Assembly: GCF_000008565.1 (NCBI RefSeq)
Contig: NC_001263.1
Location: 1,263,250-1,275,805, forward strand
Source: Deinococcus radiodurans R1 = ATCC 13939 = DSM 20539
GTDB taxonomy: Bacteria > Deinococcota > Deinococci > Deinococcales > Deinococcaceae
Length of the DNA: 12,556 nt
Direction of reading: 5' to 3'
A model generated the notes under the pieces. The model searched no databases. It had not been told where the DNA came from and saw only the letters and a program-made list of their open reading frames with translations. This document shows, one piece after another, positions 1 to 8,959 of the stretch. Every line of letters starts with the position of its first letter. The first letter of the stretch is position 1. A program made the translations under genes and the position numbers.

Positions 1-3997
<3,997 letters not shown>

Positions 3998-4414: not shown

Positions 4415-5149
4415 CTAAATGCCCCCCGTCCCCCGCCCCGTCATCTCCCCACTCTCCAACAGGTGCGCCTCAAAGTCTCCGAACGGCGAGTGCGCCCGCG
4501 CCCAGGCGACGGCTCCAGCAATGTCGTAAGCCACGTTGTGAAACTCCACGTTCCAGCCCCCGCCCCGCCGTTCCAGCAATGTCCAGCGGGCACGCGGATC
4601 ACCATCCACCTGATCGCTGATGGCGCCGCAGTTGACGACCAGAGTGTCGCCCACGCGGGTGGCCCCGGCGCGGTGGGTATGACCGCACACGACGACCTCA
4701 GCGCCCAGCGGCTCGACCATGCGCCGCAGTTCGCGCGGGTCACGGCTGCGGTAAAAGCCGCCCGCAGCGTCCCAGACCCACAGCAGGCTGTCCCAGGCAC
4801 TTTCCGGGGTGCCGTGACAGGCGAACAGCCCCTCCACTCGGGCGGTCAGCGGCAGCGCGGCGAGGCGTTCGCGGTCAGCAGGGGAGACCTGTGCGGCGAG
4901 CCACGCGCCCACCTCCTGAGCCAGCGGGGTGCGGCGGCCATCCGGCCACAGTTTTTCCTCGTTGTTGCCCCGCACTTCCAGGGCGCCGAGGTCAGCTTGC
5001 AAGGCGGCGGCGCGGGCGGGGTCGGCGCAGCCTTCGATCTGGTCACCCAGATTGACAATCAGGTCCGGCGCGGCGGCGTGCACCTCGCGCAAGGTGGCCT
5101 CCAGCGCGTAGGCGTTGCCGTGACTGTCGGTGATGACTGCGACTCTCAT
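4415..5149 (-). CDS. Metallophosphoesterase family protein (calcineurin-like, YfcE/MJ0936-like)
   Basis: 244 aa ORF with the ordered metallophosphoesterase motifs DSHGN (MRVAVITDSHGN), GDQIEG, GNNE, HGTP and GHTH. ATG at 5149. No strong SD is seen. Confidence 0.85.
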   Translation of the reverse strand: MRVAVITDSHGNAYALEATLREVHAAAPDLIVNLGDQIEGCADPARAAALQADLGALEVRGNNEEKLWPDGRRTPLAQEVGAWLAAQVSPADRERLAALPLTARVEGLFACHGTPESAWDSLLWVWDAAGGFYRSRDPRELRRMVEPLGAEVVVCGHTHRAGATRVGDTLVVNCGAISDQVDGDPRARWTLLERRGGGWNVEFHNVAYDIAGAVAWARAHSPFGDFEAHLLESGEMTGRGTGGI

Positions 5150-5187
5150 GTCCGCAGGCTAGAGCATGGCCGCTGGCTATAAGCATC

Positions 5188-5221
5188 ACAAAAAAGCGGC
5201 GAAGGGAATTCCCCTCGCCGC
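5188..5221 (-). terminator. Rho-independent terminator ending the rsr-DUF2171 transcription unit
   Basis: Minus-strand RNA reads GCGGCGAGGGG-AAUU-CCCUUCGCCGC followed by UUUUUUGUG. It lies 18 nt after the DUF2171 stop codon. Confidence 0.85.
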
Positions 5222-5238
5222 TCCGATGTTGAAAAGCT

Positions 5239-5490
5239 TTACTTGATGTCGTTGCGCGAGACGTTGAGGTACACGGCCACATTGTCCATGCTCTCGACTT
5301 GCGAGAGGGCGACGTAGTGGTGCTGGCCGTCGGTGCTGTCGTCGCGGGTCAGCTTGAGCTGGTTGCCGTCGAAGTGGTCCACGGTGCCGACGTGCTCGCC
5401 ATCCTTGTCCTTCACTTGCAGGTGCTCGCCTTCCTGGGCCAGACGGTTCTTGAGGTCTTCGGCAATGCGTCCACTGATGTCGTTCGTCAT
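5239..5490 (-). CDS. Small DUF2171-like (PRC-barrel-like) protein, 83 aa
   Basis: The segment [43 protein letters not shown] matches my recollection of the DUF2171 signature (VGxVDHxxGxxIKLTxxDxxxGxHHxIP..V..VD..V.L). It is on the same strand as rsr, 90 nt downstream, with no terminator between them. Confidence 0.8.
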
Positions 5491-5579: not shown

Positions 5580-7175
5580 TCAAACCTCGCCCCGCGCAAA
5601 AGCCGTCATCACGTTCGGCGCCGCCGCGTCGAAGCCCACCACGTCGAGCATGTCCCGGCGCTGCGGGTCCGCGATGCTGAATTCGGTGGCGGTCAGGCCG
5701 ACGACGATCAGCTTGGGTGCCCGGCCCATCTTCTGCGCGTACTGGTCGAGGGCTACCGTCGGGTGAACCTGACCAGCCCACGTTTCGTTGTCGGTGTAGA
5801 CGACGAAGGTGTCCACGTCCAGCCGTTCCTGAGCCGCCCACAGTATCGGCTGGGCGCAGTCGGTGCCGCCGAAGCTCATGGACTGCGCCTTTTGCATGGC
5901 GCTTTCCAGCGTGTCGCGCGGCGTGATGCCGAGGGGCCGAAACTGCTCGGCAAAGCCCATCGTCAGCGCGTCGGGCTCAGTGCGCAGGGCAATCAGGCTC
6001 ATCGCGGCGGCGGCCATGTTGGGGGTCAGGCCAGGGACGCCCGCCACGTCACCACAGGTCATGCTGCCCGACACGTCGAGCGCCAGCAGGTGCCGGGTGT
6101 TCGCCGGCTGCACGTTGCCGAAAGCGAGGGTAAACGCCTCTTCCAGCGCGTCCACCACGCGCGGCACCGGCAGCCAGGTGCCCTTGCCGCGCACGCCCTG
6201 GCCCTGCGCGTAGACCAGGCGGGCCTTGAGCGCGTCGAGCGGGTGGATGCGGCCCCGCTTGAGCGCGGCGGGGTCGGTCAGACGCTCTATGACGGCCTGC
6301 ACGGTGGCGCTGTCGTTGGGCGTCAGCACCCCCACCCGGCCCAGGTTGCCGAGGTTGCGCAGCAGCCAGGTTAGGCCGTTGGTCTGCATGGCGGCGCGGT
6401 ACACCTCGGCCCCGCGAACGTGTGTCGGTACGGCTTCCAGCGGGAGGCGGTACTCCTGCATCAGCGCGGCGGCTGCGGCGTCGGTCTGCGCTTCCGTCGC
6501 CTTGAGGTGGCCTTCGATGACACGCAGGGCGGGGGAGTCCACTTTGGGCAGCACGCCGTCCACCATGAACTTCAGCACCGCGTTGCGGGCCGCGTCGTCG
6601 GTCTTGGGGTGGGCCTTACGCAGCGCGTCGGCCTGGGACCAGCCGTCGCGGGCCTTGTACTTCACGGCCCACAGCGCCAGCTTGTCCACGTCCGCCGTTT
6701 CGTACACGTTCGCCACGCCCCGGCGCGTCAGGCGGCCCCAGCCCCCGAGCGCGTCGGCAAAGGCCAGAAAGTGCAGCAGCATCGTGCCGGTGCGGGCGAC
6801 CTCAGGCAGCGCGTCCCAGGCGGCCTTGCGGTCCGCCGCGTTCGGCGCGGTCTTGGCAATCAGCGCCAGCACCAGCAGCGCGGGGTCGGCCTTCGGCGCC
6901 CGCTGGCCGCGCACCACGTCCAGCGTGACGCGCAGGGCGAGGGCCGCGTCACGCTGTACCAGCTCGCGCACGAAGTCGGTGGCCTGCACGGTGTGTTTCT
7001 GCGCGGAGGCGTAGAAGGTGCCGCCGTCCACGCCCAGCACCAGAAACCGGGTCAGGCGAGACTCGTCGCTGACGGTGTACACGAAGCCGCCCGCGTTGTT
7101 CCTGACCTGGCGCTCGTCGAGGCGCTCGGTCTGGGGGCGGTTCAGGGGGTTGATGGCACGGAGCAAGTTCTTCAT
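5580..7175 (-). CDS. rsr: Rsr, bacterial ortholog of the Ro60 (TROVE domain + vWA domain) RNA-binding ring protein, 531 aa
   Basis: The sequence MKNLLRAINPLNRPQTERLDERQVRNNAGGFVYTVSDESRLTRFLVLG is typical of a Ro60/TROVE N-terminus. The C-terminal vWA domain has the MIDAS motif DVSGSM. I chose the ATG at 7175 because AAGGAGGG (minus strand, 7182-7189) sits 6 nt upstream. The 38-codon extension to 7289 in the track has no RBS and overlaps structured leader RNA. Confidence 0.95.
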   Translation of the reverse strand: MKNLLRAINPLNRPQTERLDERQVRNNAGGFVYTVSDESRLTRFLVLGVDGGTFYASAQKHTVQATDFVRELVQRDAALALRVTLDVVRGQRAPKADPALLVLALIAKTAPNAADRKAAWDALPEVARTGTMLLHFLAFADALGGWGRLTRRGVANVYETADVDKLALWAVKYKARDGWSQADALRKAHPKTDDAARNAVLKFMVDGVLPKVDSPALRVIEGHLKATEAQTDAAAAALMQEYRLPLEAVPTHVRGAEVYRAAMQTNGLTWLLRNLGNLGRVGVLTPNDSATVQAVIERLTDPAALKRGRIHPLDALKARLVYAQGQGVRGKGTWLPVPRVVDALEEAFTLAFGNVQPANTRHLLALDVSGSMTCGDVAGVPGLTPNMAAAAMSLIALRTEPDALTMGFAEQFRPLGITPRDTLESAMQKAQSMSFGGTDCAQPILWAAQERLDVDTFVVYTDNETWAGQVHPTVALDQYAQKMGRAPKLIVVGLTATEFSIADPQRRDMLDVVGFDAAAPNVMTAFARGEV

Positions 7176-7333
7176 GGTCGGCCCTCCTTGTCGTGGGCGA
7201 TGTGATTCAATTCGAGCGGATGTGAGTAGGGGGAATGGGTTCCGGACGTAAAGTCGGCAAACCGGTGGTGTTCGGGTGGGCTGACGCAACAGACGGAACC
7301 CGTGGATGACGCTCGCGGCGTCTAGTGGGACGG

Positions 7334-7440
7334 GTGGGACTCAAACCCCACCCTCGGCATTCGGCTTACGGAGGTGAGGAGCGCAAGGGGCCGTTTGACG
7401 TACTCTGTACGCTGAGCTTTCGTTCCAGAACGTGCCGAGA
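7334..7440 (-). ncRNA. Decayed Y/tRNA-like module (module A) in the NADAR-rsr spacer
   Basis: The minus-strand RNA contains CCCCUUGCG..CGUAAGCCGAAUGCCGAGGGU. This parallels chimera C (GGGCCGAACGCCGAGGGU). It is followed by a T-arm-like hairpin GUGGG-GUUUGAGU-CCCAC (7351-7334), which is one nt longer than a canonical T-loop. A closing helix pairs CUCGGCA (7439-7433) with UGCCGAG (7359-7353). There is no intact basal Ro helix and no acceptor stem. Confidence 0.35.
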
Positions 7441-7459: not shown

Positions 7460-7939
7460 TTACTCGTCGCGCAACCGCTCGCGCACCTGCATCAGTGCCT
7501 GTCCCAGCAGGTTCTCGCCCCACTGGTCGCGGTGTTCCCAGGCGTCCTGTTCGCTGTAGCCGATGCCCCAGATGCGGTCATTGGGTGCGGCCTCGACTAG
7601 AATCAACTCTCCGGTGTCCAACAAAAACTCGCGGAGTCTGCGGCTGCTGCGAAACTTGTGCCACGCGGCGTCGAAGGCCACTTGCCCGCGCACCTGCGCC
7701 CAGTGGCTTTCGCTGAAGCCCTGCACCCGGCGTCCGAGCGCCTTGCATTCGGCGGGCGTGCGCGCCTGCAAAATGGCCTTGGCGCTGGCGTGGTCGCCGA
7801 ATTCCTCGGCCTTGCGGTGCATGATGTACTGCTCGGCGGTGTGAAATTGCCGCCCACTGGCGCTGAACGGCGACGGATGAAAATTGGAGAACGGATGCGC
7901 CGTGCGGTAGAAAAACAGGTATTCGGTTTTCTGTGTCAT
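7460..7939 (-). CDS. NADAR domain protein (YbiA/DUF1768 family), 159 aa
   Basis: Family hallmarks run along the whole length: FFYRTAHPFSNFHPSPF, FHTAEQYIMHRKA, TPAECKALGR, LLDTGELILVEAAPNDRIWGIG and GENLLGQALMQVRERL. The ATG at 7939 is preceded by GAGGAG 7 nt upstream. The 93-codon N-terminal extension of track ORF 7460..8218 runs through chimera B and is rejected. Confidence 0.85.
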   Translation of the reverse strand: MTQKTEYLFFYRTAHPFSNFHPSPFSASGRQFHTAEQYIMHRKAEEFGDHASAKAILQARTPAECKALGRRVQGFSESHWAQVRGQVAFDAAWHKFRSSRRLREFLLDTGELILVEAAPNDRIWGIGYSEQDAWEHRDQWGENLLGQALMQVRERLRDE

Positions 7940-7980
7940 GGCGCTGCGCTCCTCGAATCTGGATTTATGGGAAGCAAAAA

Positions 7981-8126
7981 GGGGTGGGGACAGGCGGGAT
8001 TCGAACCCGCGAAGTCTTGCGACGAATGGAAATAACCCTGACCTGTCGGCCCAATCTGGGCAAGGGGGCGGCAGGGAAACGCCCTGACGGGCACATTTGC
8101 GTTCGGCCAGCTCCGCCACTGTCCCC
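7981..8126 (-). ncRNA. Y/tRNA chimera B: a class II tRNA-Leu-like scaffold whose anticodon loop is replaced by a ~64 nt insert carrying a hairpin-capped Ro-binding-type helix
   Basis: Minus-strand RNA. Acceptor: GGGGACAG (8126-8119) pairs with CUGUCCCC (7993-7986). D-arm: UGGCGGAGCUGGCCGAACGC, close to the bacterial tRNA-Leu sequence UGGCGGAAUUGGUAGACGC. An AAUG/CAUU stem sits at the anticodon-stem position. Variable arm: GUC-GCAA-GAC. Canonical T-arm: GCGGG-UUCGAAU-CCCGC (8010-7994). Insert core, 8066-8031: CCCUU-GCCCA-GAU-UGGGC-CGACAGGUCAGGGUUAUUU. The 3' tail is ACCCCUUUUU, with no CCA. Confidence 0.6.
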
Positions 8127-8145
8127 ATGTTGTGTGTCGTCCTCA

Positions 8146-8275
8146 TCGCGGGGCGGGACTTGCACCCGCATCTTCCACGTGACAGGTAACCCTCGGCGTT
8201 CGGCCCGCAGCCGGGCAAGGGATTGCCCAGGGAAAGGCTTTCGCCTTGGATATTTTGCTCTTAAACTACCCGCGT
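8146..8275 (-). ncRNA. Y/tRNA chimera C: a tRNA-Gly-like 5' half and T-arm with a Ro-binding-type helix in the variable-arm position
   Basis: Acceptor: ACGCGGG (8275-8269) pairs with CCCGCGA (8152-8146), giving 6 bp plus an A-A mismatch. It has U8-A9 and a D-arm GUUU-AAGAGCA-AAAU containing A14. Stem-loop: AAGGC-GAAA-GCCUU. Core, 8221-8186: CCCUU-GCCCG-GCUG-CGGGC-CGAACGCCGAGGGUUAC. T-arm: GCGGG-UGCAAGU-CCCGC (8169-8153). No CCA. Confidence 0.55.
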
Positions 8276-8282
8276 GCAGGAC

Positions 8283-8367
8283 TGGTGGATGGGGTCAGAT
8301 TCGAACTGACTCAGCTTGAGCGTCCGGTTTACAGCCGGGTGCGACTCTCCCGCGTCGCCGCCCATCC
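8283..8367 (-). tRNA. Class II tRNA-Tyr(GUA)-like gene with encoded CCA and a non-canonical D region; either a functional tRNA or a tRNA mimic
   Basis: RNA sequence: GGAUGGG CG GCGAC-GCGGGAGA-GUCGC A CCCGG-CUGUAAA-CCGGA, then a long variable arm (CUCA-AGC-UGAG), then GUCAG-UUCGAAU-CUGAC CCCAUCC A CCA. The acceptor is a perfect 7 bp. The anticodon loop is CUGUAAA, with the anticodon at 8332-8330. Deviations from a canonical tRNA: C at position 8, no A14, a 5 bp D-stem, and a C-A mismatch at the base of the anticodon stem. Confidence 0.6.
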
Positions 8368-8404
8368 TCGTGTCCGGGTTTAGAGTCGCCGGACGCGACT
8401 GGGG

Positions 8405-8500
8405 TGGGGTGGGCGCCTGGAATCGAACCAAGTTTCGCCAAATAACCCTTACGCTTCGGCCCAGCTGGGCAAGGCATGGCAAGGGATCGAAAGCGCCCAC
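8405..8500 (-). ncRNA. Y/tRNA chimera D: acceptor stem, T-arm and CCA framing a hairpin-capped Ro-binding-type helix, with no D-arm
   Basis: Acceptor: GUGGGCG (8500-8494) pairs with CGCCCAC (8415-8409), followed by C and then CCA (8407-8405). T-arm: CUUGG-UUCGAUU-CCAGG. Stem UUGCCA/UGGCGA encloses the core at 8474-8441: CCUU-GCCC-AGCU-GGGC-CGAAGCGUAAGGGUUAUU. Confidence 0.6.
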
Positions 8501-8579
8501 CACGTGAAACTCCGAGCCAGCGTTGAACTGACACGGACACAGCTCTGTGCCGTGTTTCTCTGCGTCTTGGACCGGAGGG

Positions 8580-8654
8580 TGGAGCAGGTTCACCGGAATT
8601 GCACCGGGGTCTCCCGACGGTTGCCGGGCATCTTGCTGACTAGAAGAAACCTGC
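8580..8654 (-). ncRNA. Degenerate 75-nt tRNA-like module (tL2) with encoded CCA
   Basis: Acceptor: GCAGGUU (8654-8648) pairs with AACCUGC (8590-8584), then U and CCA (8582-8580). D-like arm: UCUU-CUAGUCAGC-AAGA, with no GG. The anticodon-position hairpin is CCCG-GCAACCGU-CGGG, with an 8-nt loop. T-like arm: CCGG-UGCAAUU-CCGG. It is not a plausible decoding tRNA. Confidence 0.45.
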
Positions 8655-8659
8655 ATAGT

Positions 8660-8782
8660 GCTCTGGACAAGGGTTCGGGTCACGGACGGGCCACTTCATG
8701 CCGGGAATCGAACCCGGAACGGCTTGCACCGCTTCCGCCCATTGAGGTTGGAGAAGTAACCGTGACCACTTCGGCCCAGAGC
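8660..8782 (-). ncRNA. Y RNA (YB) with an ends-paired Ro-binding helix and an internal tRNA-like cloverleaf; a candidate for the tRNA-like Y RNA class (Yrn1/YrlA-type)
   Basis: Basal helix: GCUCUGGGC (8782-8774), bulged C8773, then GAAG, paired to CCCUU-GUCCAGAGC (8668-8660). That gives 9 bp with one G-U. Second helix: GGUCACGG (8767-8760) pairs with CCGUGACC (8685-8678). Inner 7 bp helix: UUACUUC/GAAGUGG. D-like loop: AAUGGG. Short hairpin: GCGG-UGCAAG-CCGU. Canonical T-arm: CCGGG-UUCGAUU-CCCGG (8717-8701). Confidence 0.8.
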
Positions 8783-8788
8783 CAAATC

Positions 8789-8863
8789 TGGCGGTCCCAG
8801 CGGGACTCGAACCCGCGTCCTCCCGCAGACAACGGGGCATCCTGGCCGCTGGACGATGAAACC
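8789..8863 (-). tRNA. 75-nt tRNA-like gene with a GUC anticodon loop, a Glu/Asp-type D-arm and encoded CCA; either a functional tRNA or a mimic
   Basis: RNA sequence: GGUUUCA U C GUCC-AGCGGCCA-GGAU G CCCCG-UUGUCUG-CGGGA GGAC GCGGG-UUCGAGU-CCCGC UGGGACC G CCA. The acceptor is 7 bp with two G-U pairs. Canonical U8, A14 and GG are present. The anticodon GUC is at 8830-8828. Deviations: U at position 37, U32 and G38 in the loop, and a C27-A43 mismatch. Confidence 0.6.
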
Positions 8864-8874
8864 GTAAGAGGGCG

Positions 8875-8959
8875 AAAAGGGGAAGGGCTGGGCAAGGGAT
8901 GAACCTGGAATGTTTTGTTCTACTGGGAAAGTAAATAATCCAGATTCTTCGGCCCAGCC
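8875..8959 (-). ncRNA. Y RNA (YA), a simple stem-loop type with a metazoan-like Ro-binding basal helix
   Basis: The 5' strand GGCUGGGC-C-GAAGAAUCUGGAUUAUUUAC (from 8959) compares with human Y1 GGCUGGUC-C-GAAGGUAGUGAGUUAUCUC. The 3' strand CCCUU-GCCCAGCC (8893-8886) compares with CACUU-GACUAGUC. The basal helix is 8 bp with a bulged C. The middle helix GAAUCUGGA/UCCAGGUUC is 9 bp with one G-U. Apical hairpin: UUUACU-UUCCC-AGUAGA. The 3' tail is CUUCCCCUUUU. Confidence 0.8.

Follow-up and report, generated by a model that had tools for sequence, protein, structure and literature searches.

In the window analyzed here, a 12,556-nucleotide (nt) stretch of the Deinococcus radiodurans R1 chromosome (NC_001263.1, positions 1,263,250 to 1,275,805; coordinates below are those of the window unless a locus is named), the minus strand carries the locus of rsr, the gene for the Ro60 orthologue Rsr, in the form typical of D. 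radiodurans. Read 5′ to 3′, this strand holds Yrn2, tRNA-Asp, Yrn1, a tRNA-like RNA that we call X, chimera D, tRNA-Tyr, chimera C, chimera B, a gene for a NADAR-domain protein, and rsr. Chimeras B (7983 to 8126), C (8147 to 8274), and D (8405 to 8501) each join the Ro-binding stem of a Y RNA to a tRNA-type body. In all characterized Y RNAs the Ro60 site is made where the 5′ end of the RNA pairs with its 3′ end (PMC4201824; Wang et al. 2018). In the chimeras the same stem is internal and closed by a loop, whereas the 5′ and 3′ ends are predicted to pair as a tRNA acceptor stem; each chimera has a T arm, and B and the C type have a D arm too. We put the probability at roughly 0.65 that B, C, and D are members of a conserved Ro60/Rsr-linked RNA family with ordinary tRNA topology that carries the Y stem as an internal capped arm. 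The best reading of their sequences is that they would be Rsr-binding, Y-like RNAs, an unpermuted single-chain counterpart both of the circularly permuted YrlA and of the RNase P-cleaved, CCA-tailed YrlA that is found in two pieces in M. smegmatis. The family looks like a widespread form of Y RNA.

Anatomy of the capped stem and its tRNA-type bodies

The module shared by the three chimeras reads CCUUGCCC-loop-GGGCCGA-N-GGGUUA and occurs in three minus-strand copies (B, 8030 to 8079; C, 8184 to 8234; D, 8440 to 8487), in all of which CCUUGCCC, GGGCCGA, and AGGGUUA are in register. The original prediction for this stretch, which was made from the letters alone, had quoted one string per copy and had proposed that a Ro-type helix is strand-swapped and loop-capped inside tRNA-type scaffolds. 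A direct sequence check found all three strings on the minus strand, namely CCCUU-GCCCA-GAU-UGGGC-C-GACAGGUCAGGGUUAUUU in B (8067 to 8030), CCCUU-GCCCG-GCUG-CGGGC-C-GAACGCCGAGGGUUAC in C (8222 to 8186), and CCUU-GCCC-AGCU-GGGC-C-GAAGCGUAAGGGUUAUU in D (8474 to 8441), and the proposed architecture is supported. The span first given, 8031 to 8474, does contain the modules, but the complete RNAs extend further, from 7983 to 8501. The pattern CCTTGCCC-N2-8-GGGCCGA had exactly three matches in 12.5 kb and was matched by none of 200 dinucleotide-preserving shuffles, so the module is not a chance match.

In each module, UUGCCC(N) pairs with (N)GGGC-C-GA to make helix 1, in which one C is bulged. Next comes an asymmetric internal loop, where the CUUG side has about 5 nt and the GA side 2; a second helix of 7 to 9 bp (helix 2) and then GGUUAY follow. 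The stem of Yrn1 and Yrn2 is identical (CUUGYCC with GGGC-C-GAAG, the 5-nt against 2-nt internal loop, helix 2, and GGUUAY). These two Y RNAs share the locus and strand of the chimeras and probably their transcript, and Yrn1 also has a T arm, but their stem is made by the termini. The locus thus holds two connectivities of one stem, as had been claimed. The strand that is 3′-terminal in Yrn1 and Yrn2 comes first in the modules, and a loop of 3 to 4 nt caps the stem at the point where the Yrn1 and Yrn2 termini lie. Compared with a Y RNA as the Wolin laboratory defines it, B, C, and D have the bulged-C helix (GGNC-C-GA paired to UUGNCC), the internal loop, the second helix, and a position 0.8 to 1.3 kb upstream of rsr on the same strand, but the two strands are adjacent, their order is reversed, and the stem is closed. 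The YrlA motif GNCGAAN0-1G is present in C as GCCGAACG and in D as GCCGAAG, and in B, with one mismatch, as GCCGACAG. The likeness of GGGUUAU to metazoan Y RNAs, also pointed out earlier, agrees with the metazoan Rfam Y_RNA consensus, which reads ...GUGGGUUAu after the stem.

Related loci (L001 to L017) were collected by a genome scan with Rsr (four Deinococcus loci and one Phenylobacterium locus), a protein search, and 12 exact look-ups. ARAGORN in intron mode found cloverleaves around most modules, with anticodon labels that are arbitrary. B has a class II (Leu-like) scaffold made up of the acceptor GGGGACA/UGUCCCC, a 3-bp D stem, the anticodon stem AAUG/CAUU, a long variable arm (GUC-GCAA-GAC), and a canonical T arm (GCGGG-UUCGAAU-CCCGC). 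Where the anticodon loop would be, B instead has a small hairpin, GCCC-GUCA-GGGC, together with the Y-stem hairpin, and ARAGORN called the cloverleaf with a 58-nt insert. When RNAalifold was run on nine B-type orthologues with no structure supplied, it recovered the acceptor, the D stem, both Y helices, and the T arm, with compensatory change in 13 of 27 pairs. Both programs bear out the earlier description of B as a class II cloverleaf that carries the helix in its anticodon loop and keeps its own long variable arm. The B orthologue of D. lacus (L004, 4550 to 4697) scored 44.8 bits with the Rfam tRNA model, for which the gathering score is 29. Window B itself gave no Rfam tRNA match at E ≤ 10 and was called only by ARAGORN in intron mode, and neither C nor D received a tRNA call from Rfam RF00005 or ARAGORN.

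D is an acceptor/T-arm minihelix without a D arm or an anticodon arm. Its 8-bp acceptor (G-1 plus GUGGGCG paired with CGCCCAC plus C73) encloses the Y-stem hairpin and the T arm CUUGG-UUCGAUU-CCAGG, and Rfam gave a weak tRNA-Sec match over the acceptor and T arm. The RNA ends in CGCCCAC-C-CCA (8415 to 8405), with the CCA encoded at 8407 to 8405. Eight D-type sequences from seven species folded with RNAalifold into the 8-bp acceptor, both Y helices, and the T arm, with four compensatory pairs. The CCA is invariant in the seven species, in line with the proposal that the acceptor stem of D carries it. With respect to the YrlA-like domain (T arm, D arm, and acceptor), B has every part, the D arm of C is truncated, and D has the acceptor and T arm only.

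Window C has a 6-bp acceptor (CGCGGG/CCCGCG), a truncated D arm and D loop, a T arm without U55 (GCGGG-UGCAAGU-CCCGC), and no encoded CCA. When it was aligned with 11 orthologues and the pairs were counted, the 12 loci gave a C-type consensus of acceptor, GCUC-D loop-GAGC, A, GG, an insert (AAA..Y stem..UUA), CCA, CUNNNAA, UGGCC, GGGUC, T arm, and acceptor, frequently with an encoded CCA at the 3′ end. In this consensus the anticodon stem has its 5′ strand split by the Y arm, which enters between nt 28 and 29 (GG-CCA/UGGCC, the hyphen marking the insertion), and a 7-nt loop, CUNNNAA, is kept. The split-stem model was 91.8% paired versus 82.4% when shuffled, with 17 versus 7.7 compensatory pairs, and the split anticodon stem itself was 96 to 97% paired. 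A model designated M1, in which GGAAA pairs with UUACC and the Y stem replaces the anticodon loop, was rejected: its helix is only 75% paired, and in 11 of 12 sequences it sets A against A. In the related E type (seven loci), pair 27-43 is CG five times and UA twice, and pair 28-42 is UA four times and AU, CG, and GC once each; both are 100% paired, and this covariation settles the insertion site at 28/29, which is that of the commonest types. Two features first proposed for C did not hold up. The helix had been placed at the variable-arm position, but the 11 orthologues place the Y arm between nt 28 and 29, and the hairpin AAGGC-GAAA-GCCUU (8246 to 8233), which had been taken for a retained arm, is an insertion 5′ of the module that the window shares with its 95% relative, L017, alone. 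Other scaffolds exist as well, among them some with the module in the D loop (L003, about 5075 to 5210; L009, 3646 to 3701), and there are further variants.

In the C and E types, C32-U33 and a purine at 37 are preserved in the 7-nt loop, as they are in six loci outside the Deinococcus-type set (L018, L020, L025, L029, L031, and L098). The triplet in the anticodon position varies among orthologues (GUU, CUU, UGU, UCU, ACG, and CCA in the C type; UCU, GUU, UGG, CCG, GCG, and UUU in the E type); GUU, CUU/UUU, UCU, and GAU are common and are of the kind that decodes ANN codons. We give almost no credence to the idea that the chimeras are working tRNAs that decode in translation with a tolerated or spliced intron-like insert. 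In the C and E types the 5-bp anticodon stem is indeed perfect and the 7-nt loop still has U33, and several chimeras encode CCA, but a decoding role is contradicted because the triplet is not conserved, and B and D lack an anticodon loop. We know of no bacterial enzyme that removes such inserts from tRNAs. Genes for tRNAs with introns (archaeal and eukaryotic) and permuted tRNA genes (Cyanidioschyzon) likewise have a cloverleaf with a structured insert in or near the anticodon arm, and the chimeras, like intron-containing genes, are found by ARAGORN in intron mode. They differ from such genes in having no bulge-helix-bulge motif, in their insertion sites (28/29, anticodon loop, and D loop), in their bacterial rsr context, and in showing no evidence of removal, and their insert is predicted to be a conserved protein-binding stem.

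Covariation and distribution of the family

A covariance model of the hairpin-form stem, R1, was built from 13 modules of equal internal-loop length. A MAFFT alignment of 22 modules had put the 5′ strand of helix 2 out of register and was replaced by this seed and by an alignment-free permutation test. A generic detector of bulged-C hairpins was discarded, as it was positive on 21% of shuffled inserts and 24% of ordinary tRNAs. In the window, R1 matched C (60.9 bits), B (53.2 bits), and D (35.8 bits), all on the minus strand with E values from 3e-13 to 1e-6, and nothing else. Across the window and 16 loci (208 kb, both strands), it gave 52 matches at E ≤ 0.01, every one of them upstream of rsr on the rsr strand.

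The alignment of these 52 copies was fitted to the model and so favors the structure, which tells against our reading of it; in it, 93.3% of cells were paired versus 78.6% when shuffled, 118 versus 42 cells were changed on both sides, and the covariation score was 0.397 versus 0.162 (0 of 500 shuffles in each case), with slid controls at no more than 62.5% paired and a score of no more than 0.10. Compensatory change was seen in seven of the eight helix-2 pairs, and the outer helix, CCCUN/NAGGG, is retained as had been claimed. The closing pair, for which covariation between A-U in B and G-C in C had been noted, is AU in four and GC in four B-type orthologues and AU in three and GC in three of the C type; over the 52 copies it is GC 16 times, AU 9 times, and GU 4 times. 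Because the alignment was fitted, two model-free pairing tests matter. The 3′ strand of helix 2 formed on average 6.85 of 8 pairs with its own module and 6.08 with permuted partners (0 of 5000 permutations), and it paired better within its own unit than with the next downstream unit in 16 cases versus 1 (Wilcoxon p = 2.5e-4). The second test excludes the modules being junctions between tandem Y RNAs of the end form, as we call the arrangement in Yrn1 and Yrn2.

R1 matches were obtained in 13 of 15 Deinococcus rsr loci in addition to the window; no match was found in L002, L012, or the Phenylobacterium locus L005. A regular expression for the hairpin form gave 43 matches in 46 kb of same-strand upstream sequence and 1 in 378 kb elsewhere on both strands (0.93 versus 0.003 per kb), although some matches are false, two of them being the 5′ strand of Yrn2 behind a chance CTCGCCT. 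The single match elsewhere belongs to the same RNA cluster, which an IS66 insertion has separated from rsr. In most Deinococcus, long non-coding stretches upstream of rsr are crowded with tRNA genes, end-form Y RNAs, and hairpin-form modules.

Several features of these stretches were noted in passing. An IS66-family transposase (L008, 2178 to 3551) divides the Y-RNA/tRNA array of D. arcticus in two. The arrays before rsr hold 7 to 16 tRNAs in Deinococcus (L001, 4100 to 5950; L003, 3750 to 5940; L009, 2260 to 4800) and more than 20 in the metagenomic loci L044 and L053, with Y RNAs and chimeras interspersed. In D. koreensis, a tRNA-Ala(UGC) gene (L014, 4544 to 4691) has a 72-nt insertion between anticodon-loop positions 32 and 33 with no clear GGGCCGA, which could be a degenerate or a different insert. 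A tRNA-Asp-like gene of D. yunweiensis (L003, 3917 to 4005) is seemingly interrupted by about 20 nt in its T arm and received no ARAGORN call.

A more distant set of 80 loci (480 kb) was obtained by a metagenome scan with an Rsr alignment, at 36 to 50% identity, a range into which the alphaproteobacterial L005 falls at 47%. A strict regular expression missed most metagenomic Y stems, and R1 was used in its place; it gave 36 matches (E ≤ 0.01) in 24 of the 80 loci, all on the rsr strand. ARAGORN in intron mode reported 41 "intron" tRNAs among 300 tRNAs in this set, and by inspection about 36 of them, often in tandem, have a Y-stem hairpin as the insert. About 18 metagenomic chimeras, with spans of 104 to 136 nt, reached the gathering score of the Rfam tRNA model over their full length; a chimera in L001 (5274 to 5407) also reached this score. 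Insertion at 28/29 was found again in L020 (CC-CCG/CGGGG), L025 (CU-CGA/UCGAG), L031 (GC-CGA/UCGGC), and L054 (CG-CCA/UGGCG). A viral (phage) contig, L098, encodes a Ro60 homologue of 41% identity, and upstream of this gene lie two intron-mode tRNAs with Y-stem inserts and two short end-form Y RNAs; the 28/29 insertion could be traced only in the first of the two chimeras. The original prediction was right about the locus in describing these structures as a feature of it, but the scope was too narrow, as they form a family in Deinococcus that recurs in the 24 distant loci and in the viral contig.

The one viral match to the DNA pattern, on this same contig, marks the place where two tandem end-form Y RNAs adjoin and is no hairpin module, so the sequence pattern alone is insufficient. 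Near-identical chimeras stand in tandem in L031 (206 to 331, 405 to 526, and 570 to 675) and in L042 (528 to 1233), which is the arrangement required for an origin of YrlA-type genes by duplication and permutation. Short end-form Y RNAs beside rsr (L020, 3718 to 3783; L037, 3837 to 3900; L091, 2628 to 2697) reached the gathering score of Rfam RF01656, the nematode stem-bulge RNA family ceN72-3_ceN74-2.

Relation to known Y RNAs and predicted mode of action

YrlA has the likeness of a tRNA that is circularly permuted and whose acceptor stem is closed (PMC4201824; Wang et al. 2018, crystal structure). Like the chimeras, it places a Ro60-binding stem with a GNCGAA-type 5′ strand on a tRNA-like body (D arm, T arm, and acceptor), adjoins rsr on the same strand, and has the Ro stem leave from the anticodon-stem region. 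Unlike them, it is circularly permuted, ends in the Ro stem, and has no free CCA end. Its order is Ro 5′ strand, T arm, closed acceptor stem-loop, D arm, and Ro 3′ strand, whereas that of the chimeras is acceptor 5′ strand, D arm, Y hairpin, T arm, and acceptor 3′ strand, with the acceptor stem open and often followed by CCA (encoded in D) and the Ro stem capped. The C and E types further differ from YrlA in retaining an anticodon-like stem-loop beside the Y arm. An Rfam scan of the region at E ≤ 10 gave no YrlA-type match anywhere, and B, C, and D drew only weak partial tRNA-Sec and T-arm matches. With RF01053, the family of Yrn1 (gathering score, 80 bits), there was only a partial match of 17.3 bits to the T arm of B and none to C or D.

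The YrlA of M. smegmatis is cut by RNase P, tailed with CCA, and consists of two pieces. It too combines tRNA-type acceptor ends (an RNase P 5′ end and a CCA 3′ end) with a Ro-binding stem, but its pieces of 82 and 65 nt are held together by pairing and its Ro stem has free ends, whereas the chimeras would be a single chain with the Ro stem closed by a loop. We found no description of an unpermuted, capped form of Y RNA in the literature searched, a search that was incomplete, so that an earlier description is possible.

The chimeras are probably, at least in part, the RNAs known as a, b, and d. According to the sections of PMC4201824 that deal with them, which draw on Chen et al. 2000, these are discrete, UV-induced (UV, ultraviolet) small RNAs encoded upstream of rsr; RNAs a and b have T arms, that of RNA a lacks U55, and the definition of a Y RNA adopted by the authors leaves all three out. 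The original prediction had overlooked this record of RNAs from the stretch that accumulate after UV and bind Rsr weakly. C, which has no U55, fits RNA a, and RNA b could be either B or D; X, in which U55 is missing as well, may be one of the three. In those sections there is no mention of an internal Ro helix, of an acceptor stem with CCA, or of conservation. RNA c is Yrn1, the major Rsr-bound Y RNA, and Yrn2, tRNA-Asp, and Yrn1 derive from one polycistronic precursor (PMC4201824).

In the mode of action that we propose, the chimeras would be transcribed with Yrn2, tRNA-Asp, Yrn1, X, and tRNA-Tyr as an RNA array upstream of the NADAR gene and rsr. Processing of tRNA ends (RNase P, 3′ trimming, and CCA) would then free them and leave them with nuclease-resistant tRNA-type ends. 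The Y arm may bind the outer surface of Rsr as Yrn1 does, and the tRNA body may serve as a second module, effector-binding or protective, as in YrlA. A bolder version, which is tentative and in our estimation rather unlikely, is that the cloverleaves mature like tRNAs, carry the Ro60 stem as a fifth arm at 28/29, and hold an exposed anticodon-like loop beside the bound Ro60 ring, where they would act as baits or sensors for anticodon-loop enzymes such as anticodon nucleases and couple damage to Ro60-dependent decay or repair. The variation of the triplet would then reflect conflict, and tandem chimeras would be the source of YrlA by duplication followed by permutation.

If the chimeras do bind Rsr, the rule that the Ro60 stem is made by an RNA's own 5′ and 3′ ends would not be general, and a structural rationale would be at hand for the three "other" RNAs that associate with Rsr in D. 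radiodurans and have lacked an explanation since 2000. Homology searches based on the permuted YrlA model would then probably have overlooked a large part of the Y RNAs of bacteria and phages. How YrlA arose would become testable, as a path from a tRNA, through a tRNA with a Y arm and a tandem copy (as in L031 and L042), to a permuted gene. The 28/29 site, together with an intact anticodon-like loop, also offers a handle on the purpose of the tRNA-like module of bacterial Y RNAs, for which nuclease protection, the recruitment of tRNA-binding factors, and a role as a decoy for anticodon nucleases are possible.

A number of points weigh against reading B, C, and D as Rsr-binding members of one such family. 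Below the bulged C there are only 4 to 5 bp before the cap, compared with 8 to 9 bp in Yrn1. In the sections cited, RNAs a, b, and d are said to bind Rsr more weakly, and the structures predicted for them are described as less like Y RNAs; the shorter lower stem of the chimeras could account for the weaker binding. Four tRNA-like candidates (B, C, D, and X) compete for the three names. The 3′ end of B is A-CCC, so that CCA is not encoded, and a scan for sigma-70-like promoters and terminators found none that would delimit the transcription unit. The single-sequence folding z-scores of the three chimeras are weak (−1.9, −0.35, and −1.75). In window C, the D arm, the anticodon arm, and the T loop are all degenerate; this copy is best described as a decayed member of the conserved C-type family and may be decaying in this genome.

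The last two points would also suit the view that the chimeras are decayed pseudo-tRNAs or recombination debris of duplicated Y RNA and tRNA genes without a function, as would a further decayed T-arm/Y-like remnant at 7332 to 7390 and the truncated D arm and non-canonical T loop of window C. We consider this quite improbable. The original prediction had itself named decayed recombination products as the alternative in case orthologues lacked the modules or broke their pairs without compensation; the modules proved to be conserved, with compensatory change, and that alternative is rejected for the family, although window C itself is degenerate. That the family is retained in 13 of 15 Deinococcus loci, 24 distant loci, and a phage contig, that each helix shows compensatory changes, and that the insertion site at 28/29 is conserved across distant lineages all argue against debris, which covariation has already largely refuted.

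Very improbable, too, is that the chimeras are precursors that are rearranged into permuted, YrlA-like Y RNAs with a free-ended stem, by a cut in the capping loop and perhaps ligation of the acceptor ends. The capping loop is indeed free to vary in length and sequence, many bacteria show a link between rsr and the RtcB ligase, and in other organisms the maturation of permuted tRNA genes passes through circular intermediates (bioRxiv 10.1101/312249). However, the window holds no rtcB gene, an encoded CCA after the acceptor stem indicates free tRNA-type ends, and some caps are extended, stable stems (L001, 4700 to 4760).

The rsr leader and neighboring features

Directly before rsr, the leader (7178 to 7201, minus strand, read from the sequence) has the form AUCGCCC-ACGACAAGGA-GGGCCGA. 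The pattern YCGCCC-N8-11-AAGGA-GGGCCGA-N3-6-AUG occurs in 15 of 16 Deinococcus-type loci, the exception being L012 with GGGCCGC; GGAGGGCCG likewise precedes the rsr start in 15 of the 16, and the next base is A in all except L012. Judged from its letters, UCGCCC with GGGC-C-GA could make a bulged-C Ro-binding helix in hairpin form over the Shine-Dalgarno sequence, which makes the leader a candidate site of Rsr autoregulation. The helix is invariant, so covariation cannot test it.

The leader bears on a further explanation, under which the modules would act mainly in cis, or as a titration sink, within a tRNA/Y-RNA/NADAR/rsr precursor and would set the level of Rsr by feedback together with the leader mimic, with no free effectors. 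The modules without exception are upstream of rsr and on its strand, YCGCCC...GGAGGGCCG(A) is retained by the leader in 15 of 16 loci, no terminator-like site lies between B and the NADAR gene and rsr, and the binding to Rsr reported in the sections cited above is weak. We nevertheless think this unlikely, since a cis site needs no full tRNA body with a covarying acceptor and an encoded CCA, RNAs a, b, and d were seen as discrete small RNAs in those same sections (PMC4201824), and in several loci many ordinary tRNA genes stand between the chimeras and rsr. Our preferred reading remains that the chimeras are Y-like RNAs that would be released and bind Rsr.

The other members of the array all lie on the minus strand. 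Yrn2 (8882 to 8959; RNA e, called YA in the original prediction) is a short Y RNA whose Ro-binding stem is made from its 5′ and 3′ ends; its match to the Rfam Y_RNA model (27.6 bits) is below the gathering score but covers the whole model, its folding z-score is −4.7, and the published Northern probe (PMC4201824) matches exactly at 8911 to 8939. It is followed by tRNA-Asp(GUC), with its CCA encoded (8789 to 8863 by ARAGORN; 43.8 bits with the Rfam tRNA model, over 8792 to 8863). Yrn1 (8657 to 8782; RNA c, formerly YB), which also forms its stem from the RNA ends, scored 163.4 bits with RF01053, and its Northern probe (PMC4201824) is an exact match at 8727 to 8751. Directly 3′ of Yrn1 lies X (8580 to 8654), a 75-nt tRNA-like RNA without a Y stem. 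The 7-bp acceptor of X is GCAGGUU/AACCUGC, and the RNA has three arms, a T loop that lacks U55 (UGCAAUU), and an encoded U-CCA end; RNAalifold gave a cloverleaf with five compensatory pairs, and ARAGORN made no call. X is almost unchanged in 12 Deinococcus loci (for example L001, 4463 to 4537; L003, 4358 to 4432; L004, 4180 to 4254). ARAGORN also called tRNA-Tyr(GUA), with its CCA encoded, at 8283 to 8367.

Between the RNA array and rsr is the NADAR-domain protein gene (7460 to 7942, minus strand; Pfam PF08719, E 6e-52). A NADAR gene stands at the same place in the 95% relative L017 (1189 to 1668, Pfam), and in D. lacus (L004, about 4997 to 5490) an open reading frame at this position was read by eye only; the gene is missing from most other Deinococcus loci. 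The gene rsr itself (5580 to 7175, minus strand) encodes 531 amino acids with TROVE and vWA_Ro60 matches in Pfam, its start codon being read from the sequence. A search for RDRM-like motifs was uninformative. On the minus strand between the NADAR gene and rsr, the remnant at 7332 to 7390 contains a T-arm-like hairpin, GGGUGGG-GUUUGAGU-CCCACCC, preceded on its 5′ side by a degenerate Y-like stretch, CCCCUUGCGCUCC...AAGCCGAAUGCCGAGGG; it resembles a decayed chimera and has no R1 match and no acceptor partner. On the plus strand, positions 31 to 3997 hold two overlapping open reading frames with SNF2-family helicase domains, and a LAGLIDADG_3 match near the N terminus of the second suggests an intein or a homing-endonuclease remnant.

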